From NCBI GenBank assembly GCA_965261085.1, contig OZ253442.1, positions 1,152,001-1,216,000 on the forward strand: 64,000 bases of DNA, written 5' to 3'. The notes under the pieces are model-generated. The model saw nothing but the letters and a program-made list of their open reading frames with translations, ran no database searches and had not been told where the DNA came from. Position 1 is the stretch's first letter. Every line of letters begins with the position of its first letter. The position numbers and the translations under genes were made by a program. This document shows, piece by piece, positions 3,885-61,562 of the stretch. This stretch comes from a bacterium (lineage in GTDB: Bacteria > UBA8248).

Positions 3885-4048
3885 ATCACGGCCCGCACGA
3901 ACGTTTACACACAGGTAACCGACACAGACCCACCAAGCTGCGCAGGAATTTGAATTCGTTCGCTTTCGTTTTGATTACATCTTCCAGAAATCGAACCTCA
4001 ATCAAAATTCTAAAAAACCAATTTCTTCAATAGTTTCAAGAAGCTACA
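3885..4048 (+). repeat. recombination-like site, copy A (diverged)
   Basis: TGCGCAG-N15-CGCTTTCGTTTTGATTAC (3939-3978) shared with 40744 and 61407; preceded by ATCAC-N9-GAACGTTTACAC. Confidence 0.7.
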
Positions 4049-4146
4049 AAGATTCCAAAACCGTTGGTAATCCCCCGCCGTCTGAAAGCGGGCGAATTAC
4101 GGGAAGAAGTGAACTCTGCGGTTCACACCATCATGACGCCTGAGCC

Positions 4147-4170
4147 TCACACCCGGCGCATCGGTGATGC
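4147..4170 (-). other. putative MOBF oriT nic site
   Basis: minus strand GCATC-ACC-GATGC hairpin overlapping TGCG-CCGG-GTGT^GA, the same TGCG-N4-GT(G/C)T^ layout as F and R388 nic; upstream of an RHH gene; TGTATGCTA repeats at 4251 and 4293. Confidence 0.65.
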
Positions 4171-4406
4171 CCTGGCAACAGGGCGCGCACTTGTCAGGCA
4201 GCCTCTTGCGTAAACGGCGCCTGAAGAAGGCACGGTATTGTTGGAGAAAGTGTATGCTATCAGCATACGGTGGATATAGGCTATTTCCTGCATGTATGCT
4301 ACGAGCACACAAGAGAATCGGCGCTCCGGGCGGTCGGAGTTGTTCCGTAAATGCATCGGCTCTGACGACGTCCGGGCCAAAAACTAGAGCTATTGGAGAC
4401 AATACC

Positions 4407-4778
4407 ATGACCGAAAACCATTCCGCCGCCGCCGATTCCGGCGAGAAACCTGCCGAATCGCGCTCGCCGCGATCAATCCGGTTTTCCGATTTCGAGTGGG
4501 CGTGCATCGAACAGGAGGCCGCAGAGCGCGGAATGACGGCCGCCGAGCTCGTGCGCCATGCCGCGGCGGGTTTCGCTACGGGCAAGCTGACCGCAAGTTC
4601 TTCAGCGTTCCCGCCCGGGATTGCAGCCCAGTTCGAGCGCATCTATCGCGGCGTCTACCTTCTTTCGACGCTCAAACGCGATGAAATGGTCCGGGAAGGA
4701 CGCCGGGAAGAGCTCGATCGGATCGGGAAGGACGCCCGTGAATCGCAGGCCGCGATCCTGAAGGGCGTTTCAGAATGA
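4407..4778 (+). CDS. ribbon-helix-helix protein, probable relaxosome accessory factor
   Basis: RSIRFSDFEWACIEQEAAERGMTAAELVRHA RHH pattern; GGAG RBS; next to putative oriT. Confidence 0.7.
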   Translation: MTENHSAAADSGEKPAESRSPRSIRFSDFEWACIEQEAAERGMTAAELVRHAAAGFATGKLTASSSAFPPGIAAQFERIYRGVYLLSTLKRDEMVREGRREELDRIGKDARESQAAILKGVSE

Positions 4779-5466: not shown

Positions 5467-8328
5467 TCATAAACCGAGATCCCGCTCGACTGGTTTCTCG
5501 CGCACCGGTCCGGCCTCGCGGTCCGCGGCCCGGGCCGCTTTCGCATCGACTTCCGGACCCTTCGCCGGCGCTTCCCGCGCGACCTGCCCGGTCCCCTCGA
5601 GCGCCGAGACCCGCTCGCCCGTGGCCGCCTCGAGCCTCTCGCGCAGCGCCCCGGCGTCGTCGGTCACGAGTTCCGCCCGGTCCCGGGCGCGGCTGATCTC
5701 CACGTAGAGCGTCTTCTGGTTGGTGAGGTTGGGGTGGTTGGCCTCCATCGCGGCGATGACGGTATCCACGGTCCGGCCCTGGAAGGCATGCACCGTGGAA
5801 GCCCAGGCGCGGTCGATATGCCGCAGTTGGGGGTCGCCGGCGGTCATGTCGAGCCTTCGCCCGTCCTCGAGACGGAAGCCCACGCGACCGTCTTTCACGG
5901 CCGCTACCTCGGCGGTCTGGCTGTTCACCAGGCCGAGGTCCTTATCGTTGCGGGTCCAGCGGACCCGGTCGCCCTGTTGCAACTCCATCTGCTCGACCCG
6001 GTAGACCTCGACCCCGCCGCTCCTCGCCGCGATCCGTCCCGGCTCCCAGAGTACCGATCGCCCCTCTTTGCCTTCGAGCCTGACCGTGCGCGTCTCGTGA
6101 TCGACCCCGGCGACGCGGAGTTCGTCGCCCTTCTCTACGTCGAGACGCTTGTAGGGGCGGTGGAAGGCCACCACGTCACCGGGCGCGTAGTTCGCCGCGA
6201 GCGACTTCTCGGCGCGGGTGTAGCCGCGCGAGACGAGGCGTTCGGACTTCATGGCCGGGCCATGGACGACGCCGTCGCGGATAAGCCGCTCGCGGACGAT
6301 GGCGTTTATCTTTTCGCGGATCCTGTGGCTCGGCGCCATCAGCCCCGCCTGGGCGCGCGCTTCCGGCGAGAGCGCGAGCCAGCGCGCGGCGGCCGCGCCC
6401 GCGAGGTTGTCCGGCTTGACTTCGGCGACGTTGGAGCCGAGCTTCTCGAAGGCGCGTTTCACGTCGCCTGACAGGCTCGCCTCGACGGCTGCTTTCAAGT
6501 CCGGGTCGCGCTGGCGCATGATCTCGTCCATGGTCGCCGTCTTCATGCCCGCCGACTGCAACTGCGCGAAGGGCTTGCCCGCGTCCACCGCGTCCAACTG
6601 TTTCGCATCGCCGACCAGCACCAGGCGCGGAAGGCGCAAGGTATTGGCGACCCTGAGGAGGTCGCGGGCCTGCACCGTGGAGGCGAGAGAACCCTCGTCC
6701 ACCACGAGCACGGTCTTGCGGAACGCCGCGCGCATCTCCTTCTCGCCCTTCCTGGTCAGCCGGCCCTGGGCCAGCCCAGAGTTTCTCGCGAGGAAGCGCT
6801 GCAGCGTCTCGCTCTTTATCCCGGCCTCGGCTTCCAAGGTCCGAGCGGCCGAGGCCGAGGGCGCGAGACCCTTGACCTCGTAGCCGCGTTTTTCCAGAAG
6901 GGCGCGGGCGCGGTCCAGCATGGTGGTCTTGCCGGTACCGGCATAGCCCTGCACGCCGACGACGCGGTCATATTCCGAGAGGATGAGCCGGACGGCGTCC
7001 TTCTGTCCCGCCGTGAGCGGCCCCTTGTGCAGATGCGCGCTCACCATCCAGCTCCGCATGGGCGCCCGGCCACGGTTCTCACCACCGCGCATGAGCGCAA
7101 TGGTCTCGCGTTCGTCGGCGAGCGCCTTCTCCGTGGTCATGCCGTCGCCGCCTTCGAGAGCGGGAGCGGCGTGGAGCCGGCCTTCCTTGCGCAGGTCCTC
7201 GACGGCCCGTTCGGCGGCATCGGCGGTGACCGCGCCGGGGGACCAGGCGAGCGCCCCCGCGAGAAGATCGGCGCGGGCGAACACCGCCTCGCGCTCGGCG
7301 AGATGGGCCACCGCCCATTCCACCGCTTCGGCCGCCGGCTCCTTCGTTGCCGGTTCCCGCCGCGACGGGTCGACATCCCGCACGGAAGCGTTCTCCCGGC
7401 CGGCGGCCCTGGACATCGCCTCGGCGGCGAGCGCCCGCGCGTCGAACCCCAGCCCGTCGGCCTGTTTCTCCCAGACGTTCCTGAGGGCCGTCTTGTCCAC
7501 GTCGCGTTTGTGGACCCGGGTCATGAGCGCCGCGCGTTCGGCCAGGCGCGGGTTCCCCGCCGTCTCCCCGAGACCCCGTTCGGCCACCGCCGCCTCGATC
7601 TCCGCGCGCCGGGTCGAGAACGCCTCGATCACAGAGCGGGAAACGCCCGCGATCTCGAACCGCCCGTCGGCGTGGGTCTTCTCGGCGCGGTAGCCGAGCC
7701 CGCCCAACTCCCGCGCGAGTTCGCTCCGGTAGACCATGCCGATGAGCTTCTGGCGGCGGTAGAGCGCCTCGTTGGCCATGGTCCGCCACTTGCCGTCCGC
7801 GCCCTTTACCATGTTGGCGAGGACCGCGTGGGTGTGGAGCTGGGGGTCGAGGTTGCGCGAGGTGTCGTGCCGGAAGGTAGCTGCCACCGTCTTCTGCTCG
7901 CCCGTCCTGACCATGCGGCCCGTCCCGGGGTCGCGCATGCGGGTCTCGGCGGCGTTCCTCTCGACCCAGGCGAGGGTGCGCCCGACGGCGCGGTCGTGGG
8001 CCCGGGTTACGCGCGCATCGCCTCCCACGAGCGCTGCCAGAGAGACGGACTTGGGGGCCGAGAAGGTGAGGTCGCGCCCGGGCCGGTGGTGGATGCCGCC
8101 GTCCTTGCCGGGACGGCCCAGTTGCGGTCCACCCGGCACTTTGCCTTCCAGCACCGCCTTGAAGACGTCCGGGTCGACAGGACCCGATAGCCCCAAGTCC
8201 GCCGCACCCTTTCCGGCCCAGGCGCTCGCCTCCCTGTGCGCCGGGTCGTCTTTCGCGTAGTAGCCGTCCCGCTCGTAGTAGGAGGCGCCCTGCGCGGGAG
8301 CGGCGACGGCGCCGATCGATACGACCAT
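5467..8328 (-). CDS. trwC: MOBF conjugative relaxase-helicase (TrwC/TraI)
   Basis: YYERDGYY tyrosines, RPGRDLTFSAPKSVS, HDTSR..DPQLHTH, helicase GYAGTGKT and VVDEGS; TAATG overlap with traD stop. Confidence 0.95.
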   Translation of the reverse strand: MVVSIGAVAAPAQGASYYERDGYYAKDDPAHREASAWAGKGAADLGLSGPVDPDVFKAVLEGKVPGGPQLGRPGKDGGIHHRPGRDLTFSAPKSVSLAALVGGDARVTRAHDRAVGRTLAWVERNAAETRMRDPGTGRMVRTGEQKTVAATFRHDTSRNLDPQLHTHAVLANMVKGADGKWRTMANEALYRRQKLIGMVYRSELARELGGLGYRAEKTHADGRFEIAGVSRSVIEAFSTRRAEIEAAVAERGLGETAGNPRLAERAALMTRVHKRDVDKTALRNVWEKQADGLGFDARALAAEAMSRAAGRENASVRDVDPSRREPATKEPAAEAVEWAVAHLAEREAVFARADLLAGALAWSPGAVTADAAERAVEDLRKEGRLHAAPALEGGDGMTTEKALADERETIALMRGGENRGRAPMRSWMVSAHLHKGPLTAGQKDAVRLILSEYDRVVGVQGYAGTGKTTMLDRARALLEKRGYEVKGLAPSASAARTLEAEAGIKSETLQRFLARNSGLAQGRLTRKGEKEMRAAFRKTVLVVDEGSLASTVQARDLLRVANTLRLPRLVLVGDAKQLDAVDAGKPFAQLQSAGMKTATMDEIMRQRDPDLKAAVEASLSGDVKRAFEKLGSNVAEVKPDNLAGAAAARWLALSPEARAQAGLMAPSHRIREKINAIVRERLIRDGVVHGPAMKSERLVSRGYTRAEKSLAANYAPGDVVAFHRPYKRLDVEKGDELRVAGVDHETRTVRLEGKEGRSVLWEPGRIAARSGGVEVYRVEQMELQQGDRVRWTRNDKDLGLVNSQTAEVAAVKDGRVGFRLEDGRRLDMTAGDPQLRHIDRAWASTVHAFQGRTVDTVIAAMEANHPNLTNQKTLYVEISRARDRAELVTDDAGALRERLEAATGERVSALEGTGQVAREAPAKGPEVDAKAARAADREAGPVREKPVERDLGL

Positions 8329-10421
8329 TACAGCCAGTCGACCGGCCGGCGCGCCTCCGCGCCGCCGTCTACGGGTCCATCCGGATCGACCGCGGGGTCT
8401 TCCCGCTGTCCGTAAATGGCGGAATCCCGGCCGTCGGAACCAGCCGCCTCGACCTCGGGTATTTCCGCGCCTTCCGCCTCCACCGCGCGGCATTCGGCCG
8501 GGGCCGGCCCGGGTTCTCCCTGGGGTTCCGGTTCAGGCATCTCCCGGGCCCTTGTCGCCGTGTCACGCCCTCCGGGCGGTGCTCCGGGCGGTGCTCCGGG
8601 CAGTGCGGATGCCTCCACCTCTGCGTTTCCCGGGGTTTCCTGTGGCTCGGCCTCCGTGTCCTTCGCCTCGAGGGCCGGTATGTCGCCTCTCGGCACGAAG
8701 CTCTCGGCGGCTTTGGGCCTTTTCACGTAGGGAAGACTGATCCGGGCCACGGGCCAGGGACCGGGGAACTTGAGGTAGCCGCATAAATTCTCGAGGCGCA
8801 TGATCTCCGACGGCAGGGCCAGGGGGCGCATCTCGCGGCGCTGGGTGAGCGAGACCCCGTCCCGCATGGAACTCGCGCCGTAGCTCAAGCCCTGCGCGTA
8901 TTCCGTGACCTCGCCGCGTCCCAAGCTCTCGGCCGACCAGCGCGCCGTCTCCTGGTCGGGCGCCGCCAGCACCACCCGGGTGCCGCAGAGCCCCGACACG
9001 GTCTCGGCGCCGTTTCGGCCGTAGAGGTCGCGCAGGGCGGAGAACACCTGGATCCCGAGCACGAAGCACCCGCCGAACTGGCGCGATTCCGCGAGACCGG
9101 GCTGTAAGCTCGGCACCTGGTGTAAGGTGGGAAGTTCGTCGAGCACCACCCAGACCCTGCGCGCGTCGTCCCGGCCGAGGGAGAGGAGCGCGTTCACCGC
9201 GATCTCGAGCCAGGTGGAGATGAGACCTCTCAAGCTCGCGTGCTGGTCCCCGCGTGAGGTCAGGAACAGGAAGCCCGACTCGTCTTCGCGTTCCACCCAC
9301 TCTCTTATCGAGAAGGGTGCGCCCGTGTCGGGCAGGAACTCGAGCGCGCTCAAATGCGCGGTCAGCATGGCGCGCACCGAGAGAGCGGTCTTGGGGTTCT
9401 CCGGATCCACGATGGACTGGGCCACCGTGCCCTCCATGGCCTGGGCCAGGGCGGTGAGTTCGGTCTTGAGCAGGTGATCGACCAGCACCCGGTTCTCGGT
9501 CACGCCCTGTTTCCAGAGGACGCCCGCGCCGTTTGAGAACAGCTGCCTCGCGGCCGTGACCCAGAAGGGGTCCACCGTGTCCTTCTGCTGGGGGATAAGA
9601 GCGGCGGCCATCGTGTCGAAGTCCCGGGGCGTCCTCGCCTCGAAAAAAGGCGACCAGCGCGGCGCCCGGGCGTCCAGGGGGTTCATCAGAACGTCGCGGG
9701 CGGGGTCGTAGTATGCCCCCGTATAGCTCCCCATCTTGTCGTAGAGGATGCAGCGCTCCCCCCGGGCGCGGATCTGCGCGACCAGGTCCGAGATCAGGAC
9801 GGTCTTGCCCGAACCGGTGGTGCCCGAGACGATGGTGTGCTGGGTCTCGGCGCGCTTTGGCCAGGGTATCCCTGCGATGCGGCAAGACGCCCGTCGAGCG
9901 CTCGGGAAGAGGGCTTCCGCCAGGCGGGCGGAGGCGGGCTGTACGCGCCGTCTGAGCGCACCGGCGGATGTCATCTCCGCTCCCCGGACCCTCTGTGCGC
10001 GGGCCAGGCGCCGGCCCAGGAACCAGAAGGCGAGCGCGCAGAGGAGAATGCCGCCCAAGCCGATCCAGAGGCCCAGCCAGGCCTTTGCATGGATGGCGCC
10101 CAAGAGGCGCCTTTTGATCCGCTCGATCCGGGGGTCCGCCGCGATGAGGGCGATCCGCTCGCTCGTCCGCGCGCCTTCGCGCCACTCGTAGGCCTGGCGC
10201 GAATCTGGAGAATATCCCAGGCCGAGCTTGGCCTCGGCCAAGACACCCAGGCCTACGACCCGCCATTCATGGGCGCTCGTGGTGCGCCAGACCCCGATGA
10301 CGGGGACCAGAACGATCGTCAGGAGGAGTCCTAAAATCCCCCAGCGGACGAGCTGGCCCCACATATGGACGTCGTGCAAGAGGGTCTGGCCTCCCCTTAA
10401 GGTTGCGTTTCCGTACGTCAT
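8328..10421 (-). CDS. traD: type IV coupling protein TraD
   Basis: two N-terminal TM segments, GTTGSGKT, YDKMG, LDELPTL; directly upstream of relaxase. Confidence 0.95.
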   Translation of the reverse strand: MTYGNATLRGGQTLLHDVHMWGQLVRWGILGLLLTIVLVPVIGVWRTTSAHEWRVVGLGVLAEAKLGLGYSPDSRQAYEWREGARTSERIALIAADPRIERIKRRLLGAIHAKAWLGLWIGLGGILLCALAFWFLGRRLARAQRVRGAEMTSAGALRRRVQPASARLAEALFPSARRASCRIAGIPWPKRAETQHTIVSGTTGSGKTVLISDLVAQIRARGERCILYDKMGSYTGAYYDPARDVLMNPLDARAPRWSPFFEARTPRDFDTMAAALIPQQKDTVDPFWVTAARQLFSNGAGVLWKQGVTENRVLVDHLLKTELTALAQAMEGTVAQSIVDPENPKTALSVRAMLTAHLSALEFLPDTGAPFSIREWVEREDESGFLFLTSRGDQHASLRGLISTWLEIAVNALLSLGRDDARRVWVVLDELPTLHQVPSLQPGLAESRQFGGCFVLGIQVFSALRDLYGRNGAETVSGLCGTRVVLAAPDQETARWSAESLGRGEVTEYAQGLSYGASSMRDGVSLTQRREMRPLALPSEIMRLENLCGYLKFPGPWPVARISLPYVKRPKAAESFVPRGDIPALEAKDTEAEPQETPGNAEVEASALPGAPPGAPPGGRDTATRAREMPEPEPQGEPGPAPAECRAVEAEGAEIPEVEAAGSDGRDSAIYGQREDPAVDPDGPVDGGAEARRPVDWL

Positions 10422-10596
10422 CCGGTCCTCCTGTTCAGGATTGTGTGGATAGTGGTGCGCCCGTGCGCACTGTGGCGGGGATTCCGTCACGGGGACTGGT
10501 CCTCCTTCGGCCGCTACGAGTTCATTGATGAGGACGGCGACCGCTTCGACCCGGACGGGCCGCTACGCCCGTCCCCGTAGAAGGGACCTCCGCGCC

Positions 10597-10998
10597 CTAA
10601 ATCGGTCTCAGTCCTCGACCATCCGTCCTCCGTCCGGTCCCACCGCGGTCCGGCGCCGGGACCCGTCGCCGCGCCGAGTCCCAGACCTCCAGGTCCGCGG
10701 GCAGGTAGCGCACCCGGAACCCGAACCGGTGGAAAACCGGCCCCTTGCCGCTCACACGGTAGCGCTCCAGCGTCCTCGGCGAGAGGCGCAGCCGTGCGGC
10801 CGCCTCCCGTGTGCTCAGGTAATTCCTGCCGTTCTCGTTCATCGGCGCATCTCCTTCGAGGCCGAACCCGGCGAAAGGGTCCTCCTCCGTTACCCCGGCG
10901 CGGATGGCCCGGGCCTCTTCCTCTCTCGCCTGCGCCGCAACGCTGCGGCGCAGGCGATCGCCGGGGGGCATGTCGGTGTGGGTGTCCAGCGTTCCCAT
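10597..10998 (-). CDS. excisionase-like HTH protein; internally deleted paralog of 38694..39449
   Basis: MNENGRNYLSTREAAARLRLSPRTLERYRVSG near-identical to the 38694 ORF C-terminus. Confidence 0.7.
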   Translation of the reverse strand: MGTLDTHTDMPPGDRLRRSVAAQAREEEARAIRAGVTEEDPFAGFGLEGDAPMNENGRNYLSTREAAARLRLSPRTLERYRVSGKGPVFHRFGFRVRYLPADLEVWDSARRRVPAPDRGGTGRRTDGRGLRPI

Positions 10999-11149
10999 CG
11001 AAACGAACATAAAGTAAAAAAACGCGCCTGAAAATTGTTTTCGATAGCGCATAACCTGCACGCATGTTGCATTCCTGCCCACACATGCGGTGGGCTGCGC
11101 AGCAATGCGACAAAAAAACGGGGGCTCCCCGCGACGACGGAATAGAGGG

Positions 11150-11360
11150 GTATGGCATAAACATATATGAAAAGAAGAAAATCCGCGTCACGCCCGAACA
11201 GTGGGAACGCGTCAATGAAGAGGCGCAACAACGCGAGATCAGCCCGAACCGCCTCTTCATCGAGCCCCTACATGTGGAGGCCATAGAGTGCAGGGAATGC
11301 CCTCGCGCGAAAGCGGAAATTATCTGTTGCGCTCGACCATGCTAGCCGCGCAGGCTGGAC
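11150..11360 (+). pseudogene. frameshifted RHH-like regulator remnant
   Basis: KKIRVTPEQWERVNEEAQQREISPNRLFIE resembles the 4407 RHH protein; continues in another frame (LLRSTMLAAQA). Confidence 0.4.
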
Positions 11361-11714
11361 CACGGGCGCAAATCGGTGGTTCCCTGATGAATGTTTCTGA
11401 GCGCCGAAGCATGACCGCAATCAAGCTATTACGGGCCGGACTTTACAGGACGGTCGACAGAGACCCGCCGAGATGCGCACGAGTTGTAATTCATCCGCTT
11501 TCGGTTTGGTTACATGCTGGAGAAGGTGAATTCCTAACGGGATCGAGGAGAATGAATCTTTCCCAACAGTATTAACAGGGTAGGAGAATTTCACGAGCGA
11601 TGAATAAGCTTCTCCGCCTCTAAGCGGGCGAAAGACATTTATGTGCGATCCGTAAGGAGGAACACTTCCGGCCGCTCACACCACCATGCTGACGGACCCG
11701 ATGGCGGACACGAA

Positions 11715-11880
11715 CTAGGGAGCATTATCCGGGAGGAGGGCGCCGGCGTCCCGTCCGCACCACCCGCCGCACCACCCACAACACCTTGTTGCGGATATGG
11801 ACGTCTTCTGCGCGGCAGGGAGAATGGTCTGTGGGGATGAGCCGGAGCCTCGGGCGTTCCTCCTCGGCGCCATCGCAGCG
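11715..11880 (-). pseudogene. C-terminal remnant of an S24 peptidase/repressor
   Basis: EEERPRLRLIPTDHSPCRAEDVHIRNKVLWVVRRV parallels the C-terminus of 39610..40359. Confidence 0.55.
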
Positions 11881-12487: not shown

Positions 12488-12616
12488 GGTGATATTCCTT
12501 TCCGGTAATCCAGGGGACCCGGTTTCGGTCCCCGATGTCCCGCGGGCCCTCGCCCGCATCCTTTCGCTTCACGTTCAAGATTCCAGGAGGCGCGCGCGGG
12601 ATTGCCCCGTCCACCG

Positions 12617-46908: not shown

Positions 46909-46920
46909 GGCGGGAAACCG

Positions 46921-52786: not shown

Positions 52787-54070
52787 ATGCGCCTGGAAGT
52801 TCATAATCATACCGTCCGCGAAATAGAGTTCGGATCGAAAAATCAGATGAAAGATGGCAACTTATGCATCGATCCCTCGTACTTGGAAAAGCTCGCACGT
52901 CCGCATCCGGCCATCCAGCGGGTGGCCGTTGAGATTGCGCGGCCGAACGAATCCGTGCGCATCGTCAATCCGCTCGACGCCGTCGAGCCCATCGCCAAGG
53001 CGGGGCCCGCGCCCCTGGACGCCTTCCCCGGTTTCATCGGCCCATCCCAAACGGTCGGCAGCGGCGTCACACACCGGTTAAGCAATCTGCGCGTGGTGCA
53101 GTGCGGAATCTTCCCCAAAAAGTCCACCGGCGTCCTGACCGTCCGCCCGGCAGTGATCGACATGGCTGGCCCGGCCGCCCCCCTCTGCGCCTGCTCGGAC
53201 AGCTTCAACCTCGTGCTCACGTTTTGGCCTTGTCCGGACGCGACGAACCACGAGTTTGATGTGGCCATTCGAACAGTGACTCTGCAGTTCGCCCATCATC
53301 TCGGGAGCCTCGGCTTCGAGCAGGAGCTGGACGACGTGGAAGTGTTCGACATAGCAGCGTCATCGGACGGCCAGAAGCCACGCGTCGTCTATATCGGCCA
53401 AGTCCAGGACCAAGGGGAACTCGTCCAAACCTTCCTTTACGGGCAGAGCACGCGAATCCATACCCCTACCGCTCTATACCCGACGGAAATGCTGGATGGC
53501 GCGGTGGTGAGCGGCAATTACAAGAGTGCGATGAAAATTCCCACGTTCATGCATTGCCGCAACCCGGCAATCATGGAATTGCTAGACCGGCACGACAGAG
53601 ATCTGCTGTTCGCGGGGGTGATTCTGACGCGGGGTCACAACGACAACCACTTGCTGAAGGAGCGGAGCGCCTATTTTGCGGCGAACCTGGCGCGGCTGCT
53701 TCAAGCCGATGGCGCGATCATCAGTATCGAGGGGACCGGCAACACCATCATCGATGCAATGCTGACGGTGCGGGCCTGCGAGTCGGCAGGCATCAAGACG
53801 GTGCTGAAAATCCATGAGCACGCAGGGCAAGACGGGCGCGACTTTCCGGTCGCGGATTTCGTCCCGGAAGCGGATGTCATCGTGAGCACGGGGAATCTGG
53901 ACGAGCCGTTGGTCCTGCCGCCAGTGGAAAAGGTCCTCGGGCCCCAACCGCTCGAATTCTACGAGCGCCCACCCATCGATCCATTGGCGGGCGGGGAAGT
54001 GACGGGACACGAGCTTTACGCAAGCCAGTGGCAGATGGGGATATCGGGGATTTCCTGCGTCTCCTTCTAG
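52787..54070 (+). CDS. reductase component B proprotein (GrdE/GrdI family)
   Basis: IARPNESVRI..DAVEP, IDMAGP, PTEMLDGAVVSG, EGTGN, VSTGN. Confidence 0.92.
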   Translation: MRLEVHNHTVREIEFGSKNQMKDGNLCIDPSYLEKLARPHPAIQRVAVEIARPNESVRIVNPLDAVEPIAKAGPAPLDAFPGFIGPSQTVGSGVTHRLSNLRVVQCGIFPKKSTGVLTVRPAVIDMAGPAAPLCACSDSFNLVLTFWPCPDATNHEFDVAIRTVTLQFAHHLGSLGFEQELDDVEVFDIAASSDGQKPRVVYIGQVQDQGELVQTFLYGQSTRIHTPTALYPTEMLDGAVVSGNYKSAMKIPTFMHCRNPAIMELLDRHDRDLLFAGVILTRGHNDNHLLKERSAYFAANLARLLQADGAIISIEGTGNTIIDAMLTVRACESAGIKTVLKIHEHAGQDGRDFPVADFVPEADVIVSTGNLDEPLVLPPVEKVLGPQPLEFYERPPIDPLAGGEVTGHELYASQWQMGISGISCVSF

Positions 54071-54080
54071 GAGAGAATTC

Positions 54081-55415
54081 ATGTCCATTCGAGTGGTCCA
54101 TTATCTCAATCAATATTTTGGCGGCAAGGGGGGTGAAGAAAAGGCGGATTGCCCATTGGAGATCATAGAAGGCCCCGTAGGGCCCGGGAAGCTACTCCAG
54201 CGGGAGTTGGGCGACGACGCTTTTGTGACGACCATTATTTGCGGCGACGGTACCTTCGAGAAGGCCGAAGGCCAGACCCTCGAAGAAATTCGGCGGGCCA
54301 TCCGGGGGGCATCGCCCCATGTGCTCATCGCGGGGCCAGCGTTCGCGTCCGGAAGATACGGACTGGCCTGCGGTGCGGTGGCGGCCTGTGCCATGAGCGA
54401 CTGCGGAGTCCCGGCGGTCGTCGGAATGTCGGAGGAGAATCCCGCCCTGGAGTTATATCGCGCGCATGCTTATGTGGTCCCCTCAGGGGATTCCGTCGTG
54501 GAAATGCCGGCCTCTCTGCAGCGGATGGCCCACCTCGCAGTGCGCTTGGGGAGGAGGGAATCCGTCGGAAGCCCGGAGGAGGAAGGCTACTTCCCTCGCG
54601 GCATCCGAAGGAACGCCCGCCATCGCCGCTCGGCGGAAGGGAGGGCGCTAGATCTTCTCCTCGAGAAAATCCGGATGGAGAGCCCGCGGACCGAACTTCG
54701 CCTCAGCGCGGCCGAGGTCGTTCCGCCTCCCTCACCCCTGGCCAACCTGACCGAATCCACCATCGCCGTGGTGACCGAGTGTGGGGTCGTCCCCAAGGGA
54801 AATCCCGGTCGAGTCGAAGGTGTCCGAACGCAGAAATGGGAAAAGTACAGCCTCGATGGTCTTAAGGCGCTTTCCGCCGAGACCCACGAATCCATTCATG
54901 GAGGATACGACAACACGCGGATCAACGAGGACCCCAACAGAGGCGTGCCGCTGGATGCGCTTCGGTCGTTGGAAAGGGAGGGGTTCTTCGGAAGGCTTCA
55001 CGATACCTACTACGTGACCTGCGGGAACTGGGGCAATGTCGGCGTGATGAGCCAGATCGGTAAGGTCATCGCCGCTGAACTGAAAGAGGCTGGGATTCAC
55101 GGGGTCTTGGTGCCGGCTACGTGAGGGTCGGGGACGCGTAGCGGAGCTACGCTGGCGAAACAACTCGAGGCGGCGGGGATTCCCACCGTCTTGGTAACCT
55201 GCTTCTTCACCGTTGCCTTATCTATGGGCTGCAACCGCATTGTGCGGGGCGTCCGATTCCATCACCCGTTCGGGGATCCGGAACTGACCGAGGAGAGAGA
55301 GCGCACCCTTCGGAAGGATCTGGTGCGCGCGGCTCTTCAGACGCTCACCATTTCGATAGACAAGCAAACGGTCTTCGACACGGGCGCGCTGCTAGATGCG
55401 AGCAGCGTGAATTGA
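54081..55415 (+). CDS. grdB: reductase selenoprotein B (GrdB/GrdH family)
   Basis: VVHYLNQYFGG.GGEEKA, GPAF.SGRYG, HGGYD, LVPAT-U(TGA 55122-55124)-GSGTRSG; GCGTAGC-GGA-GCTACGC hairpin 11 nt after UGA. Confidence 0.94.
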
Positions 55416-55622
55416 AATGTCCGGGTGAATTCTTGAGGAGAAACGACGATGAAAAAAAAGGATTTCTGATGAATCGCCGGGGATTTCTCCAAAAGCTCAT
55501 CGCGCTCGGCGTCCGGGAGGGGGGAGCACACTACGTCCGGAGTTCCGCGGAGAACATCTCATGCACGCTACACACAACGCCTCAATGAGTTATAAAGCGA
55601 GGCTCTTAACTGAGGAGGGAGA

Positions 55623-56675
55623 GTGATGCCACGTAACAAAAAGATGGTGACACGGAGAAGTTTTCTGAAGAAATCTGCCTTTACTCTGGGAGCATTAACT
55701 GCAGCACCTGGCGTCCTTGCCAAGCCTAGGAAGGGGTACGCTGCTAGCTTCCCAAGCAAGCCAATACACGTGACAGTGCCCTGGAGACCGGGTGGCGGGA
55801 CGGATATTTTTACACGGGGCATTACGCCTGCCTGGGAGAAAGTTCTAGGAGTTCCGATTGTCGTCATTAACAAGCCTGGGGGCAACAACCAGGTCGGCTA
55901 CGAATATGTCTACGGTAAGGAACCTGATGGCTATAACATGGTCTTCGGCCAGCTGCCGAATTTGAATATCACATATCTCTTCCAGAAACCCCCCTACAAG
56001 GCGGAGAGCTGGTCATGGCTGGCGCTGGTTCACGATGACCAGCAGATTTTCTACTGCGCCAAGCAAGCGCCGTGGAAAGACCTGGGAGACCTGGTTGGAG
56101 ATATGAAGCGCCGCCCGGGAGAGATTAGTGTCGGAACCACCTCAAGAGGCTGGCATTACTACTTTCCCCGCCTTCTCGAAAAGAAGACGGGCCTTAAGTT
56201 CGGCAAGATACTCCCGTTCGAAAGCGGAAAGGGAGCCAGTTTGACTCGTGAAATCCGAGGCGGCCATCAGCTGCTCGCGACTCATGGTAGTTGGGTCTCC
56301 TGGGCTCGCAGAGTTCCAACATTTGCACGCGGCTTGGGGACGTGTGCCTTGAAGAGAAGTCCCTTGTGGCCAAATGTTCCTACGTGGAACGAGGTCCTGC
56401 CTCCAGAGCAGCATGTCACAGAGGATGAAATCTACCCGACTGTTTACAAGGGTTTCGTGTTTCCGAGTGCAGTCAAAGAGCAGTATCCAGACCGTTGGAA
56501 AGTGCTAGATGAAACATGGCGACAAACGATGACCACGAAGGCATTTAAGGATGCCGTTGCTAAACTTAGGGCGACAACAGTTATTCGATATAAGGGACTC
56601 GATGAGGCTGACAGAGAGATGAAGAAGTTCGACAAGATTTTGACGGAGCACAAAGACATTTTCGCGCGAAGGTAG
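55623..56675 (+). CDS. tctC: tripartite tricarboxylate transporter substrate-binding protein (Bug/TctC) with Tat signal
   Basis: TRRSFLK, FPSKPI..VPW.PGGGTD, NKPGG, PDGY, PNVPT..E. Confidence 0.92.
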   Translation: MMPRNKKMVTRRSFLKKSAFTLGALTAAPGVLAKPRKGYAASFPSKPIHVTVPWRPGGGTDIFTRGITPAWEKVLGVPIVVINKPGGNNQVGYEYVYGKEPDGYNMVFGQLPNLNITYLFQKPPYKAESWSWLALVHDDQQIFYCAKQAPWKDLGDLVGDMKRRPGEISVGTTSRGWHYYFPRLLEKKTGLKFGKILPFESGKGASLTREIRGGHQLLATHGSWVSWARRVPTFARGLGTCALKRSPLWPNVPTWNEVLPPEQHVTEDEIYPTVYKGFVFPSAVKEQYPDRWKVLDETWRQTMTTKAFKDAVAKLRATTVIRYKGLDEADREMKKFDKILTEHKDIFARR

Positions 56676-56761
56676 AACAAATTTGTAGGGTGAAGCTGGA
56701 TCAAAGACAGGGATGAGGGGGAAACGTTCAATCCTGAGCACCCTCAGGAAGTAGGGCACTT

Positions 56762-57178
56762 ATGCGCTTACATCGCTTATTCTTGCCAACTTTTGCGGTT
56801 GTATTCTCAATCGGTTATTTCTTTGACACCTACTCTCTTCCATTTTCCTCGACTTTGTATCCGCGAATCCTCATAGTTCTTCTTCTTGGCTTGTCCGTCT
56901 ATGAGCTTTGGAAAGAACTCCACGATGCCAGCCCCGAAACAGAAGAAGAGAAAATGCCAAATCGCCAAATCTTGTCAAAGATTGGTGCTGTGATCATTCT
57001 TTCTGTTGCCTATGCCCTCACGGTCGAGCGCATGGGCTTCCTACTGGCGACTCCCGTATTAGTATTTTTTATGCTTCTCGTGTGCCGTGTGACGGCCTGG
57101 AAATCGATACTCATGGCAATTTGTACGACAGCGGCATTTTATACTGTATTCGTAAAGTTTCTTCTTCTTCCGCTTTAA
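56762..57178 (+). CDS. tctB: TTT small membrane subunit
   Basis: 4 TM, MGFLLAT, between tctC and tctA. Confidence 0.85.
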   Translation: MRLHRLFLPTFAVVFSIGYFFDTYSLPFSSTLYPRILIVLLLGLSVYELWKELHDASPETEEEKMPNRQILSKIGAVIILSVAYALTVERMGFLLATPVLVFFMLLVCRVTAWKSILMAICTTAAFYTVFVKFLLLPL

Positions 57179-57190
57179 GGGAGCGTCACC

Positions 57191-58690
57191 ATGTATGACG
57201 CGATGTGGCCCGGGCTTCATTTGCTTTTTAAATTCGAAAATTTGATTTTTCTGTTTATCGGTGTACCAATAGGAATTATTTTTGGCGCTTTACCAGGAAT
57301 AAACTCGACCACTGCCATGGTATTAATGCTTCCCTTCACTTTCTGGATGAAGCCAGAACAGGCCGTCATATTTTTGATGGCTATTGCTGGTGCCTCAATT
57401 TACGGTGGCGCAATTCCAGCGATTCTTTTTGGAATGCCTGGAACACCAGGATCTAGCGTAACCGCCATTGAGGGCTATGCAATGACCCGCAATGGCGAAG
57501 GGATTAGAGCTCTTTCCATATCAGCTCTCGCCTCTTCCATAGGAGCTTTCCTGAGCGGCATTTCCTTAATGGTACTTGCTCCCCTCCTCGCTGTTTTCGC
57601 TCTCACATTCAGCTTTCCGGAGTTGGTGCTTATTGCTTGCTTTGCCCTTATCTTCCTCGCAGCCTTCAAAAAGTCGATGACTAAAGGACTCCTGGCCGCT
57701 CTTTTAGGACTTTTATTGGCAACTATCGGGACAGACCCTTTCTTTGGATACCCCAGGATGATTCTGGGCGTAGTCGCGTTATATGAGGGCCCATCGATTA
57801 TTGTAGCCCTTATTGGCTTCCTCTGCTTTTCTGAGGTTCTGATCCTTTGTGAGAGGCAGAGCGTAGTTAGGAGGGATGTGGAAACCCGAAGGGGAATAAG
57901 AGAAGTATATTTAGGTATATCCGATGTTTTACACAAACCAATCCATGTGCTTGCCGGCACTATCGCGGGTATCATAGTTGGCGCAATTCCTGGAGCTGGC
58001 ACTGGCATAGCCAACTTTCTGGGATACGTCGCGGGGAATGCCTTATCCAAGAACCCCGATCAATTTGGCAGAGGGACAGTCGATGGCGTTATCGGACCAG
58101 AGGCCGCAAACAGCGCAGTGGAAGGCAGCTCGTTGATTCTCGCGCTTACAGTTGGTATCCCCGGTAGCGGGATGGCTGCTGTAGTTCTTGCAGCGCTTAT
58201 GATTCACGGCATTGTACCGGGGCCTGATGTTTTCATACTTAAAGGCGAGCTCGTGTGGGCTGTGATGTGGTCAATTCTTTTGGGCGCTGTCGTAGTTTGC
58301 ATTGTGGGCTTGACATTGTGCAATTATTTCGGCCGCTTGGTGAGCCTTCCCATATCATATCTAGTCCCATTTCTAGTCCTGTTCATGATCATCGGGAGTT
58401 ATGCTGCGCGCAATTCAGCAGTCGACATTGTGACGATGATAGTCCTTGGGGTGCTTGGCTATTTCATGGCAAAATCTGGGTATGAGCGGCTGGCCATCGT
58501 ATTTCCGTTTATTCTTGGTGGGATGATTGAGCAAGGAATTGTATTATCGTTGCAACGCTCAGACGGGAACCCCCTCATATTCTTCCAAAGGCCTCTCGAT
58601 TTAGTGCTTTGGGCTTTTCTTGTCCTAGGGCTTCTCTCAATTAGGTGGCTGAAACGGCGAGTAGAGCGCACAGCTGAGCCATTCGTTTAG
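57191..58690 (+). CDS. tctA: TTT large permease
   Basis: GALPG, YGGAIPAIL..PGTP, PEAAN, GIPGS, PGP. Confidence 0.95.
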   Translation: MYDAMWPGLHLLFKFENLIFLFIGVPIGIIFGALPGINSTTAMVLMLPFTFWMKPEQAVIFLMAIAGASIYGGAIPAILFGMPGTPGSSVTAIEGYAMTRNGEGIRALSISALASSIGAFLSGISLMVLAPLLAVFALTFSFPELVLIACFALIFLAAFKKSMTKGLLAALLGLLLATIGTDPFFGYPRMILGVVALYEGPSIIVALIGFLCFSEVLILCERQSVVRRDVETRRGIREVYLGISDVLHKPIHVLAGTIAGIIVGAIPGAGTGIANFLGYVAGNALSKNPDQFGRGTVDGVIGPEAANSAVEGSSLILALTVGIPGSGMAAVVLAALMIHGIVPGPDVFILKGELVWAVMWSILLGAVVVCIVGLTLCNYFGRLVSLPISYLVPFLVLFMIIGSYAARNSAVDIVTMIVLGVLGYFMAKSGYERLAIVFPFILGGMIEQGIVLSLQRSDGNPLIFFQRPLDLVLWAFLVLGLLSIRWLKRRVERTAEPFV

Positions 58691-59859
58691 TCCCACGTGG
58701 GGTCAATCCCGCCCGGGGAGCCTGAATACGAGACTACGGATTGATAGATAACCTAAGCTTAAAGCTCAATTCTAATCTTTTCATGTGAGGATTGCACGCA
58801 GCTTTTGAACAGAAGTATGGGCAGTTGACCTGCCCTCAGTTGTTGTACCACTCCTGTGCTCCGCAAAAATTGGATCCTCCATAAAAAGAATACTTTGCCG
58901 AGGTCGCCAGATCAGGTTTAGGCGTGCCATGATCCATCTTATGGTCAAAGCCAAAGCCATTTTTCATGTTCTGATTGCCCCGTGCATGGCAAATTAGTAA
59001 ATCGCCATGCACAGGATTCATGGAGTAGGAAAAAACGACTAAAGCCCGATCCACTTCCGGGAGGGCATTTGCACAGGCCTGAGGAACCCACCGGAACCAT
59101 CTGGGTGGTGTCCTTATAGGTAACTACAACCGGTGCGTATCAGTACCAACCGGAGTCACTCAGGTTCACTTCGGGAATTGCTCAACTCCTTGAAACGTAT
59201 CGCTCCAGGTCACTACAAGCTCAATCAGGCTCATACCCCTTGCATTGCCCTTACAAGGCAACGTTTCTCGGCATCTGAATTATTCTCCCCAATATTTTTC
59301 TCGGGCCATGTCACATAATCCGTATACTGGCCCCCATGGGCACAGGGGCAGGGGGCGCGACACTCGTTTTCTGATACCGGTGCTAGCGCTCCCCCCTGCG
59401 CGCCCTCTCTCCCCGAGTGCCTTCCCCTGGATTTGAAGGCGGACAATTCACGGACAGAGCAGAGAATTAGGTTGGAAATAAAGAGATTCAAGGGGGCCGT
59501 TGGGTTCATAACCCAACGCGCGCGGAAAAAGTGGCTCGCGAGGCATTGATGCGATTCGCCGAAGAATCTTTTTATACTCAAAACCCACCACCATATAAAT
59601 TGACAGATAAAACCATTATCCTGCATCCGCTTGGGCGCGATTTTTTTAAGCGTAATATGAAAATCGTCTGGTGTTGGGCTTTATGCACAGGACGAACTAT
59701 CGACAAGCACGGAACCCAAACATTCCTGCGGTCGCCAACAAGATCGGTTTTCCAGAATCTCGCGGACAATGGAAAGGAGAGCGGGAGACTTCCTGCGCGG
59801 GGGCGCGGACCCCCGGGAGGGGGAGCACCTCTTCGAGCGCAAGGCGGCGGACGCTCTCT

Positions 59860-61020
59860 CCCCGCGCGCTCACTCGATGAGCGAACTGCTTCTCGCGAGT
59901 TCGTTTCACATCGCCTCGGGGGAGGGCGAGGGCAAGGGTGAGTCCGGACGCTGGTCGCTGTGGGGCCCGGGGGGCGCGCTCGAGCTTCAGCGGCAGGGAC
60001 GGCGACCTCGCGCTGGACGGCGACGTCACGACGGGTCTCGTGGGCGCGGACTACGAATCGGGCAAGGCGCTCCTGGGCGTGGCGCTCGCCTGGAGCGCGG
60101 GGGATGGTTCCTACAAGGGCGCAGGCGCTGCGGGCGAGCTCGAATCCACGCTTGCGAGCGTATACCCCTACCTGCGCTACAGGATGAGCGAGCGCCTCTC
60201 GGTCTGGGGCGTCGTGGGAATGGGCGAGGGCGACCTGACGCTTAAGACGCCCACGGGCGAGACGATGGAGACCGGCCTCTCGCTGGCGATGGCGGCGCTG
60301 GGGGTGCGCGGGGCGCTTCTCTCGAGGGCGGGCTACGAGTTGGCGGTGAAGTCCGACTTCACCTTCGTGCAGAGCGAATCGGAGAAGACGACGGGCCTGG
60401 CCTCCGCGGAGGCGCAGACGAGGCGCCTGCGCCTCGTGTTCGAGGGTTCGCGCGAGATGGACTTGGGCGCCGGTTCGCTGACGCCCTCGGTGGAGGTGGG
60501 CCTGCGCTACGACGGTGGCGACGCGGAGACGGGCGCCGGCGTGGAGTTGGGCGGCGGGGTGCGCTACGCGGCTTCGGGGCTCACGATGGAGGTCCGCGTA
60601 CGGGGCCTCCTCGCGCACGAGGAGAGCGACTATGAGGAATGGGGCGTGAGCGCCTCGGTGGTCTTCTCTCCCGGTTCGGAGGGGCGCGGGCTCTCGATGC
60701 GCGTGGGTTCGGCCTGGGGCGCCGCCTCGGGCGGGGCGGGCCGCATCTGGACGGGCGGGGCGGCGGGTCTCGCGGGGAGTGCGGATCAGCCCGGCGCGAG
60801 CCTGGACGCGGAGGTGGCCTACGGGCTGGACGCCTTGCGCGGCCTGCTGACGCCGTATGCGGGCGTGGCGCTCTCGGAGAACGGCGAGACCTGGCGCGCG
60901 GGCGCGCGCTGGAAACTCGGTCCCGCCTTCGACTTGGAGCTGGAGGCGAGCCTGAAGGAACCCGTAGGGGATGAGGAGCCCGAAGGCGGACTCCTCCTGC
61001 GCGGCTCGAGAAGGTGGTAG
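59860..61020 (+). pseudogene. orphan autotransporter beta-barrel (5'-truncated, frameshifted near 59970); paralog of the 12617 barrel
   Basis: LLLASSFHIAS..GRWSLW / DGDVTTGLVGADY...GLRYDGGDAETG...LRGSRRW. Confidence 0.88.
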
Positions 61021-61159
61021 GCGGACCGCTTCCCGCTTGAAGCGGACGCCGCCGCCGGAGGAATCCGGCGGCGCTACGGGGCGCGGGCGGTGGTTCCCGA
61101 ACCGACGTTTCGGGCTGGACTTTGGAGGAGCGCCGCACGATTCACCGACACGTGTAAAA

Positions 61160-61562
61160 GTTCAGTCGTGGGGTGATAGAGTGGACCACAGCATCGACTG
61201 GGTCGATCTTGACGGCGGGTTCACGGACATGATGACCAGATTGAGAATGCTAGCCGTATACCGCAACCGCTTGATTCTTCTGCCGCCTTCGAATTAAGAA
61301 AGCACCGGGTCAAGCCAACTATGATCGGGAAGAACACAGAAACGTCGCTGGCCCCGACGACGCCATCACCCCACGACTGAACCATTACGACGTGGACGCG
61401 ACGGGATGCGCAGAAGTTTCAATGAATCCGCTTTCGTTTTGATTACTAATTGTAGAAGGCAGATTCTGAATAAATTCAGAAAACTTATATATCCAAAATA
61501 ATTTCAATAAGATATAGGGGTTTCATAGCCGATCAAAACCTCTTAATGTCTCTAAGACGAGC
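61160..61562 (+). repeat. recombination-like site, copy C (perfect 18-bp IR 61160-61177 / 61365-61382 plus block 61402-61562)
   Basis: GTTCAGTCGTGGGGTGAT inverted pair; direct repeat of 40739-40899. Confidence 0.85.

Follow-up and report, generated by a model that had tools for sequence, protein, structure and literature searches.

The window, a 64-kb stretch of bacterial DNA, holds four copies of a ~180-bp sequence which are probably att-type junction elements without an integrase, the terminal 'arms' of integrated modules left by serial integration. Because the element is found where conjugative elements and islands end, sometimes directly against a tRNA-Ser gene, it most likely marks positions at which an integrase joined one block of DNA to another.

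An earlier note on this DNA had described three copies of a 40-nt motif in direct orientation. An exact search for the pattern TGCGCAG-N15-CGCTTTCGTTTTGATTAC agreed with this, giving exactly three matches in the window, all on the + strand, at 3939, 40744 and 61407, and none of 100 shuffles of the sequence gave any match. The 40-nt pattern is the core of the longer, ~180-nt junction element, of which the window has four copies, all on the + strand; they are listed here together with the window's one tRNA-like gene:

3918..4096, + strand, copy A (nhmmer E 6e-39; G000 1155918-1156096, G000 being the genome that holds the window)
11453..11633, + strand, a fourth, diverged copy (nhmmer E 5e-44), overlooked by the earlier note
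40722..40896, + strand, copy B (nhmmer E 1e-44)
61386..61565, + strand, copy C (nhmmer E 3e-41), at the right end of the island
about 3312-3400, - strand, tRNA gene, the sole Rfam 15 match passing in the window

Copy A, with the 40-nt motif inside it at 3939-3978, lies ~1.4 kb past the 3' end of the relaxase gene. The fourth copy is 77% identical to A over 70 nt, is not found by the exact 40-nt pattern, and sits in a 10.4-kb cargo insert of the conjugative element. Copy B marks the end of the conjugative backbone on the repressor side, starting 363 nt downstream of the repressor stop codon, and shows 93.6% identity to the copy in the same position of a second conjugative element (G000 2516778). 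The extended similarity of B and C had been recognised previously, but its length is somewhat greater than the 161 bp then given: the two are 88-91% identical along 179-205 nt, up to position 61565. The palindrome TTCTGAA..TTC(A/G)GAA and the motifs TTTCAA-N4-(C/A)TA and ATCAC-N9-GAA were each found as first described. The sites are also not tRNA 3' ends, as the earlier note had said, the only tRNA-like gene of the window being ~520 nt from A with its 5' end towards A.

The element starts at its left end with a short block, CGACA, followed by a ~65-nt module with two direct GTTTTRAT-like boxes, the second of which lies within an 18-nt core that is invariant. Next is an AT-rich stretch that contains an IHF-like site, then an imperfect TTTCAT...ATGAAA palindrome, and the right terminal block ends CTCTAA and then a G/C-rich decamer that is common to element right ends.

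The number of sites is much larger than three, the count first proposed. In G000 (4.27 Mb, 96% complete), the 18-nt core with at most two mismatches has 41 matches (26 forward, 15 reverse), against 0 for a reversed control, and a profile of the ~183-nt family (nhmmer, E<1e-10) identifies 47 copies, many of them solitary and adjoining ordinary chromosomal genes with no obvious island. Three genomes from a different family of this class (G022, G024, G026) also have copies; G008 has 32 core matches versus 0 in its control, and 48 of 57 exact-core loci in other assemblies are members of the family. The orientation of the copies is ordered: the 47 copies in G000 form 11 orientation runs where 23.6 are expected (z -3.9, or -3.6 without two duplicated copies), and all 11 copies at G000 2.44-2.52 Mb are on the + strand.

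In the window, the elements lie around the following features:

5467..40359, - strand, F-type conjugative backbone (Pfam matches)
5467-8493, - strand, TrwC relaxase (Pfam)
8328-10490, - strand, coupling protein (Pfam)
10450..20850, no strand assigned, cargo insert in the backbone (duplication and Pfam evidence)
21902-38388, - strand, TraG/H/F/N/U/W/C/V/B/K/E/L (Pfam)
38694-39485, - strand, HTH_17 gene (Pfam)
39556-40359, + strand, divergent cI/LexA-like repressor (Pfam)
40893..59787, + strand, island between B and C (Pfam)
59886..61020, + strand, autotransporter beta-barrel remnant, an inverted paralogue of 12617-13762

The cargo insert encodes a 256-aa HTH_17 paralogue, an S24 peptidase, an autotransporter-like protein, a giant LRR/cadherin-like protein and a LysR regulator. 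On either side of it lies one copy of a 534-bp duplicated segment, the 3' end of the coupling-protein gene (9903-10436 and 20864-21397), and the insert is missing from the second backbone copy in G000. Paralogous backbones are present at G000 2491189-2514993 (80-91% identity over its blocks and 90% over the T4SS block) and at G000 219877-242552 (76-84% identity). The proposal that the conjugative backbone lies between A and B, and an island between B and C, held up; the same backbone is bracketed again in G000 and in G008. Co-oriented elements flank the backbone in three of the four copies looked at, namely A...B in the window, G000 2485842...2516778, and G008 958478...929326 (core matches, both on the minus strand). 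The third conjugative element of G000 is a ~67-kb insertion relative to G008 and G004 with an integrase pair at one end; there is no full element at either end of it, so it is not bracketed.

The island encodes an ABC transporter, CMD, a DsbA-like protein, a truncated IS1595 transposase, TauE, IclR, glycine/sarcosine/betaine-reductase-like proteins and TctABC. G004 has it at 99-100% identity on two contig pieces, the interruption being an inserted repeat accompanied by a 7-bp duplication (48118-48124). The beta-barrel remnant to its right is present in G006 and absent from G004.

Sequence identity between genomes is lost at the two outer edges of the element and not within the 40-nt motif. An 11.2-kb duplication with 99.98% identity (window 3933-15108, G000 3722713-3711538) begins inside the left edge of A, between CGACA and TGCGC. 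The right flank of the 11453 copy, from 11622, is 91% identical to G000 1432698-1429038, which has a copy of a different subfamily. In G004, the island copy begins at 40893, the right end of B, after CTCTAA (window 40893-48124 is 99.7-100% identical on that contig), and no element was found upstream of its start there; the match of G004 to the right flank of the window begins at 61561. G006 carries window 39271-61565 at 99-100% identity, and this block stops at the right end of C. The right end of a 1.25-kb SBP cassette falls directly after CGACGCGT, and the same cassette (97% identical) is present at two loci whose flanking elements are only ~70% alike. At loci L095 and L100, synteny with relatives stops within ~15 nt of the element edges; at L098 this is true of the right flank, and matches to the left flank begin 85-200 nt away. 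Since these junction comparisons, like those of tRNA genes below, used metagenome-assembled genomes with 4-16% estimated contamination, some of the synteny breaks could be assembly errors. Blocks in common with relatives have their start or stop precisely where B and C end on the right, and this part of the earlier suggestion of tandem accretion by a recombinase acting in trans therefore fits the data. A search of relatives found no clean empty site, and neither a circle junction nor a deletion allele or other excision product was seen in contigs from public runs, which break at the repeat; the 20-kb stretch covered there contains one copy.

The element is found directly beside tRNA genes. In the genus, it lies 2-41 nt after the 3' end of tRNA-Ser in 11 of 44 loci, 6 of the 22 usable tRNA-Ser(GGA) loci and 5 of the 22 tRNA-Ser(TGA) loci, and in all 11 it has the same orientation. 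Two further tRNA contacts were detected in other assemblies (L041, L087). In G008 the order is tRNA-Ser(TGA), element with its right end towards the tRNA, RecQ, repressor and tra genes; the equivalent of B thus abuts the 3' end of tRNA-Ser(TGA), so that the conjugative element itself lies there. The 3' end of tRNA-Gly(CCC) has a 9-nt match to the consensus right end, but occupancy does not support it as a target, with an element at 0 of 24 tRNA-Gly(CCC) loci of the genus.

Searches for genes and for remnants agreed with the earlier note that there is no tyrosine or serine recombinase in the 64-kb window. Elsewhere in G000 there are 22 PF00589 matches, tandem pairs among them. The left half of the element (profile positions 7-95) shares homology with the promoter-leader region preceding tandem tyrosine-recombinase genes at G000 1091943 and 2394037, and a similar leader precedes the integrase pair at G000 217365, which adjoins a relaxase gene. 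Reading by eye, we found a GATTAC-type motif within ~100 nt upstream of the start at ~24 of 36 loci of int1 homologues in other assemblies. This homology suggests a candidate enzyme-site pair, consisting of the tandem tyrosine recombinases and the element.

We propose that paired tyrosine recombinases, like those of the sister conjugative elements in G000, would bind the element and integrate a circular module, with the crossover at a short core on the right edge of the element and the 3' ends of tRNA-Ser genes as the preferred natural target. Repeated integration would produce arrays in which modules alternate with elements of one shared orientation, and loss of the integrase gene would leave elements that could be mobilised only in cis, if they are mobile at the present day. 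In the window, A...B would be one conjugative element minus its integrase, and B...C an island accreted to it. Several observations speak against the att reading: breaks fall at both edges of the element and not at one core, the SBP cassette would not be predicted by a single-crossover model, the window has neither a recombinase gene nor a remnant of one, no circle junction, deletion allele or clean empty site was seen in the contigs and relatives compared, the ~67-kb conjugative element with its integrase pair has no full element at its ends, and many copies are solitary.

A broader reading, which we regard as possible and put forward tentatively, is that the elements form a genome-wide docking system of ~50 co-oriented, hairpin-less att-type sites per genome, at which paired tyrosine recombinases would insert, stack and exchange kb-scale modules. 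The sites would be located on conjugative elements as well as on the chromosome, and, with the same tentativeness, the whole would act as a 'macro-integron' behind the mosaic genomes of these sponge-associated bacteria, letting entire stacks move along with a conjugative element. An example may be a 22-kb block whose identity between G000 and G006 is 99-100%, with differing flanks.

It is rather unlikely that the element is of the MITE/REP/BIME type, a selfish and non-autonomous intergenic repeat spreading alone and taking no part in the integration of islands or conjugative elements, and coinciding with their borders only since repeats promote rearrangement and attract insertion sequences. 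The copies are dispersed as such a repeat would be: every one is intergenic, their size is constant, there are subfamilies, and presence differs between close relatives. At a given locus, one subfamily copy can be exchanged for another while the flank stays 91-94% identical. IS110/IS1111-type elements are also described as targeting REP sequences (PMC11187229). However, we looked for terminal inverted repeats and target-site duplications of the element and detected none, RNAalifold on 40 and on 83 distinct sequences gave neither a consensus structure nor a conserved hairpin for either strand, and 'empty' target sequences were not enriched in G000 (10 matches versus 5 in controls, none convincing). 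Membership of the MITE or REP groups was rejected on the pairing and the empty targets, the dispersed intergenic distribution itself being as in those groups. Random insertion would not yield the orientation runs in G000 or the uniform orientation at tRNA-Ser, and homologous recombination between copies would break inside the element, not at its edges. Blocks of the element are moreover kept across a class-level clade, yet the median pairwise identity of the copies in G000 is 63%. Enterobacterial REP/BIME sequences are intergenic mosaic repeats with IHF sites and are targets of IS110-family elements. The element may be analogous to these in its dispersed intergenic mosaic, its IHF-like site and its role as an IS110-family target, but it differs in having no palindromic REP unit, in its strongly ordered orientation, and in occurring next to the 3' ends of tRNA genes and at the termini of conjugative elements.

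That the element is a shared regulatory cassette (a promoter, an operator with an IHF site, or an mRNA leader) which puts flanking operons of the conjugative elements and islands under one regulator, in the manner of the AcaCD/SetCD boxes of IncA/C plasmids and SXT elements, we consider improbable. The alternation of strongly conserved with variable blocks, the IHF-like site and the palindrome would suit a cassette of this kind, as would the homology of the left half to the promoter and 5' untranslated leader of integrase genes. One RNA-library contig also spans 40739-40969, from the core of B to nearly the start of the SBP gene, although strand and transcript start are not readable from contigs. 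On the other hand, the genes flanking the copies occur in every orientation, the dispersed copies do not retain the -10-like hexamer seen in the integrase leader (read by eye), and the operon downstream of B has a near-consensus sigma-70-like promoter of its own outside the element (TTGAGA-17-TATAAT at 40914-40942, 11 of 12 matches). Neither a conserved RNA fold nor an Rfam family was found, the best Rfam 15 score being E about 1 around three copies.

In a strict form, the earlier proposal would be that exactly three attL/attI/attR (or res) sites belong to this one composite element, with a dedicated tyrosine or serine recombinase and a crossover in the 40-nt motif. Three exact matches do lie as direct repeats at the right places, but as stated this version is very improbable, being contradicted by the fourth copy in the window, the 47 copies in the genome, identity breaks outside the motif and the absence of serine recombinases. 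A serine resolvase acting on 'res' sites was rejected too, as no serine recombinase is encoded in the genome: PF00239 gave 0 matches in the 96% complete G000, and the control search matched 12 of 14 reference genomes.

Least probable of all is that the copies serve as an oriT, or mimic one, for the MOBF relaxase and allow flanking DNA to be mobilised. Copy A is near the relaxase end beside a weak NikA-like ORF, and copies within one element are co-oriented, as a polar transfer signal would be, but there is no conserved hairpin beside a candidate nick site, many of the 47 copies lie by housekeeping or tRNA genes, and in the second backbone copy the transfer genes have no element immediately upstream.

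Among known systems, the preferred reading of the copies as junction elements left by serial integration is closest to tandem ICE/IME/CIME accretions such as ICESt1/ICESt3 of streptococci, where, as described in PMC5704250, co-oriented direct repeats part a conjugative element from decayed integrase-less neighbours and integration takes place at a tRNA gene 3' end. Co-oriented direct repeats at module borders, a specific target such as a tRNA 3' end, and between-genome identity breaks at the site (40893, 61561-61565 and 3933; L095, L098, L100) were all found here. Compared with the att sites outlined in that source, the unit here is long (~180 bp) and conserved throughout, with ~47 copies per genome, including solitary chromosomal copies, in a class-level clade; breaks fall at both edges, and the recombinases presumed to act on it come from a tandem gene pair at another place in the genome. 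The int1/int2 pairs resemble Tn554-type recombinases in consisting of two tandem tyrosine-recombinase genes, but differ in size (391 and 406 aa here) from those described in PMC3414803. The name 'BIM' is not applicable to them, because the BIM modules of that source consist of one recombinase plus an unrelated protein. In the integron attC and IS1111-attC group, as presented in PMC11187229, co-oriented repeats likewise separate modules and an IS110/IS1111-type IS lies at one end of the repeat. Unlike attC, the elements here have no hairpin-forming imperfect inverted repeat, and the modules are 1-31 kb with at least one carrying its own promoter. An integron attC identity was rejected, both on the RNAalifold result and on integron-integrase models, which score 38-48 bits against cut-offs of at least 265.

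If the preferred reading is true, a single 180-bp sequence would serve to locate where conjugative elements, decayed islands and accreted cargo begin and end throughout a clade of uncultured bacteria associated with sponges, the genomes of which are difficult to parse by other means. The reading would also account for metabolic islands that are physically tied to a conjugative element and travel along with it, here a transporter and glycine/betaine-reductase-like selenoprotein island.

Insertion sequences abut the element in the window at two places:

40341..40720, no strand assigned, decayed IS110/IS1111-type end against the left edge of B (similarity over 40341-40623)
61161..61390, no strand assigned, second decayed IS110/IS1111-type end, against the left edge of C (70% identical to G000 2515387-2515158)

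An intact IS at G000 2515160-2516771 sits at the same edge of a B-like copy, and its non-coding part matches window 40341-40623 with 78% identity. IS of this type are found at one element edge as three intact copies and one truncated copy, and more decayed ends lie beside other copies. By the features tested, all read from sequence, the IS belongs to the IS110/IS1111 family: the truncated copy, which was covered by the Pfam scan, matches PF02371, the intact 365-aa ORFs are its BLASTP paralogues and have an N-terminal IGIDLAK motif (read by eye), and the length is 1.6 kb, of which ~500 nt are non-coding 3' of the ORF. IS1111 members are reported to target integron attC sites (PMC11187229), and the IS landing at element edges would be a naturally occurring case of an RNA-guided IS that targets a repeat resembling a recombination site. 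Directly left of B is the IS-end-like motif CCATCACCCCAC, and the same motif is present at the second decayed end by C.

The window carries, on its minus strand, an F-type conjugative element (TrwC relaxase, coupling protein, genes TraG to TraL); beside it, copies B and C of an intergenic element enclose a transporter and reductase island. The earlier note had described three direct copies of a 40-nt pattern, and these were borne out: TGCGCAG-N15-CGCTTTCGTTTTGATTAC gave three exact matches on the plus strand (3939, 40744 and 61407) and none in 100 shuffles, and the flanking motifs listed with it were also present. B and C are 88-91% identical across 179-205 nt. A repeat finder added a fourth, diverged copy (11455-11524, 77% identity to A), contained in a 10.4-kb cargo insert of the conjugative element that has a 534-bp duplication on its flanks.

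Element copies and the adjoining repressor in the window
3918-4096, plus strand: element copy A
11453-11633, plus strand: fourth element copy
39556-40359, plus strand: cI/LexA-like repressor, divergent from the tra genes
40722-40896, plus strand: element copy B
61386-61565, plus strand: element copy C

A search with an 18-nt core carrying two degenerate positions and allowing at most two mismatches found 41 sites in G000, the 4.27-Mb source genome of the window, but none with the reversed control. Alignment of 41 copies, with four three-mismatch outliers left out, defined a family of ~183 nt in which strongly conserved blocks alternate with variable blocks, and a profile search of G000 returned 50 matches at E<=1e-3, 47 of them at E<1e-10 and mostly full length. 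Pairwise identity among G000 copies has a median of 63% and reaches 90% in 6 of 780 pairs. All copies are intergenic with neighbouring genes in every orientation, and solitary ones adjoin ordinary genes (methylmalonyl-CoA mutase, ZnuA, MgsA, DEAD-box helicase, PHO4). The related genome G008 has 32 core matches, and three genomes belonging to a different family within the same class carry the element as well. In a public species collection, 48 of 57 exact-core loci were family members, seven were chance-level core-only matches and two gave no match; the assemblies with exact-core loci are titled Nitrospinota, Acidobacteriota, Rhodospirillaceae or plain 'bacterium', and several are sponge-derived. 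The literature, searched by words rather than by sequence, yielded no published description of the family, which is a weak sign that it has not been published.

The 47 G000 copies form 11 orientation runs against 23.6 expected (z -3.9, or -3.6 without two duplicated copies). All four window copies are on the plus strand and the tra genes on the minus strand; the 11 copies at G000 2.44-2.52 Mb are likewise all on the plus strand. Two further copies of the conjugative gene set, or backbone, were found in G000. The second (2.49-2.515 Mb; 80-91% identical over blocks, 90% in the T4SS block) is bracketed by elements at 2485842 and 2516778, the latter sharing 93.6% identity with B and occupying the equivalent position behind the repressor; the third lies at 0.22-0.2425 Mb (76-84%). 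The G008 backbone (~931.8-955.1 kb) is flanked by minus-strand core matches at 929326 and 958478. Elements bracket three of the four backbone copies examined.

Comparison between genomes, with flank alignments made for ~8 loci, placed several junctions at element ends. The related genome G006 contains window 39271-61565 at 99-100% identity, a block that stops at the right end of C, after CTCTAAGACG, beyond which its DNA differs. In a further relative, G004, the island begins at window 40893, directly after the CTCTAA of B and with no element upstream, and the match to the right flank of the window starts at 61561. Within G000, window 3933-15108 has an 11.2-kb duplicate (99.98%) whose start at 3933 separates the CGACA block from TGCGC. 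A 1.25-kb SBP cassette is present at 267935-269180 and 2484601-2485850 (97% identical) and ends at the last base of CGACGCGT; the elements beside the two cassettes are only ~70% alike. At two chromosomal elements (L095, L100), synteny with five relatives ends within ~15 nt of the element edges, and at a third (L098) this holds for the right flank, the left-flank matches there beginning 85-200 nt away from the left end. In most relatives the flanks of each of these loci lie apart. Because the breakpoints fall at the edges and not inside the 180-nt repeat, they argue for site-specific events rather than homologous exchange. The conserved 40-nt motif would be an arm and not the crossover point.

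In G000 the copy at 996076 directly adjoins the CCA end of a tRNA-Ser(GGA) gene that lies on the other strand. We scored tRNA loci in 23 genus genomes, counting as occupied those with an element 2-41 nt past the 3' end.

Occupancy of tRNA loci by the element
tRNA-Ser(GGA): element in 6 of 22 usable loci
tRNA-Ser(TGA): element in 5 of 22 loci
tRNA-Gly(CCC): element in 0 of 24 loci

All 11 tRNA-Ser elements face the tRNA with their right end, and other assemblies supplied two further tRNA-Ser cases. The gene order in G008 is tRNA-Ser(TGA), element, RecQ, repressor, tra genes, and the B-equivalent there is the junction of the conjugative element and the tRNA gene. Such a junction is the classical position of an att site. 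The right-end decamer of the element shares a 9-nt identity with tRNA-Gly(CCC) in at least 12 copies (13 nt in one); an origin from that tRNA was rejected on the empty tRNA-Gly(CCC) loci, and the 9-nt likeness is possibly a coincidence. A search for a degenerate tRNA right of C gave no tRNA signal, and a short 'scar' form of the element at empty tRNA-Ser flanks was dropped for ambiguous alignment. Separately, a relaxase 3' fragment and then an integrase pair are found at G008 923292-925442, ~3.7 kb from tRNA-Ser(TGA) on its 5' side. G000 2394037-2397120 is arranged in the same way, and the G008 segment may represent what is left of an earlier conjugative element at this tRNA gene.

G000 has 22 PF00589 matches, among them tandem pairs of tyrosine-recombinase genes (int1/int2; ~392 and 406 aa) at 1091943, 2394037, 3742652, 3813748 and 217365. 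The last directly adjoins the relaxase of the third backbone, and the promoter and leader of the first two align to positions 7-95 of the element profile. A GATTAC-type motif, read by eye from the sequences, lies within ~100 nt upstream of ~24 of 36 int1 homologues from other assemblies. The third backbone and its cargo form a ~67-kb insertion (G000 ~217.0-284.0 kb) relative to G008 and G004, and in this comparison neither end could be traced to a core or element. A tblastn search of the window with four integrase proteins gave no integrase remnant below E 0.6. The name 'BIM' was rejected for the pair, as the BIM described in PMC3414803 has a different make-up, one recombinase and another protein. 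A third repeat family of ~125-135 nt (G000 1091160-1091300, 217020-217141 and at least 15 other places) sits just outside the left end of integrase-pair units, and in most relatives one of its copies marks where the left-flank homology of the ~67-kb insertion stops.

We lean towards reading the elements as putative att-type sites, integrase-less junctions that would have been left by serial integration of modules, with recombinase action and excision predicted from sequence comparison. The earlier proposal that modules accreted at such sites is retained on the bracketing of backbones, the coincidence of junctions with elements, the adjacency to tRNA-Ser and the homology to integrase leaders; the notion of three special sites gave way to a large dispersed family. 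The main unexplained point for the att-type reading is the occurrence of two break edges rather than a single core. Among known models, the tandem accretion of ICEs, IMEs and CIMEs outlined in PMC5704250 comes closest.

Other readings fared less well. Insertion into a conserved 'empty' target, with the left block joined directly to the right block, showed no enrichment in G000 (10 matches versus 5 in controls). A promoter of the SBP operon was set aside, this operon right of B having its own near-consensus TTGAGA-17-TATAAT outside B, and a promoter of the leftward tra operons was dropped because B lies downstream of the plus-strand repressor and flanking genes face every way. The idea of a structured RNA, or of a hairpin in single-stranded DNA, found no support: no consensus structure emerged from RNAalifold on either strand (whole element, 40 distinct sequences; left module, 83), and Rfam held nothing matching the element. 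Resemblances to sigma-54, ECF, XerCD/dif-like and MOBP nick sites, judged by eye only, were unconvincing, and the res-type site suggested earlier fails on the lack of any serine recombinase in G000.

An IS110/IS1111-type insertion sequence of 1.6 kb, comprising a 365-aa ORF and a long non-coding stretch downstream of it, lies against the left edge of the element.

Copies of the insertion sequence
G000 2516778, 280924 and 3790813: intact copies
G000 1872024: truncated copy
Window 40341-40720: decayed end left of B
Window 61161-61390: decayed end left of C

A further remnant interrupts an element in G004. The ATCAC-N9-GAA motif occurs at B and C because the decayed ends lie there. IS1111 members are described as targeting attC sites, REP sequences and transposon ends (PMC11187229).

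The B region was found in 20 public sequencing runs from 11 studies. The four examined consist of contigs, which are silent on strand, transcript ends and rare joints, and cover a 20-kb stretch with copy B only. DNA contigs end at 40893, and one RNA-library contig spans 40739-40969. The listed contig joints are located in repeats, of ABC transporters and others, and no joint connects two element copies, B being the only one in that stretch. RNA-library depth over tra and island genes is contig-based and unusable for ranking expression.

Several further features were seen. The conjugative element carries two very large surface-protein genes (12617-18969, minus strand), encoding a 944-aa Calx-beta autotransporter-like protein and a 1227-aa protein with LRR, cadherin-like, SWM-repeat and SRCR-like domains, with paralogues at at least four other places in G000; eukaryote-like domains of this kind are typical of host-associated bacteria. 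Between the giant LRR/cadherin-like gene and a LysR gene, GGCTTGA is repeated in ~27 perfect tandem copies (19253-19440), an array that recurs with differing lengths at homologous flanks elsewhere in the genome. Window 1-3200, of low GC, encodes a DUF5131 (phage Gp37/Gp68-like) protein, a 406-aa HATPase_c protein and a 249-aa protein without family, has no match past position 967 in 22 genus genomes, and is possibly a small islet with a defence role or of phage origin. The tRNA-like gene at 3312-3400 (minus strand, 89 nt; ARAGORN Trp, anticodon CCA; Rfam tRNA 54 bits) has no encoded CCA end and lies in a stretch of 36-43% GC; 47 of the 52 predicted tRNAs of G000 encode CCA, and a canonical tRNA-Trp(CCA) is at 3946369. 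It looks like an extra, island-borne tRNA.

A second dispersed repeat, ~155 nt long and with a palindromic, G/C-rich centre, lies at window 61885-62040 and 62450-62600 and again at 63472-63505. It has more than 30 genome copies at 73-92% by BLAST, and many in relatives. In G004 an element with inverted ends breaks up the island at a site duplicated over 7 bp (CTTGCCC / CCTGCCC; loci L193 and L195, equivalent to window 48118-48124); its two sides are on different contigs. A GrdB-like ORF of the B-C island (54081-55415, plus strand) has TGA at codon 348 and, with this read as selenocysteine, is in frame for 444 aa; a tRNA-Sec is present at G000 110882.
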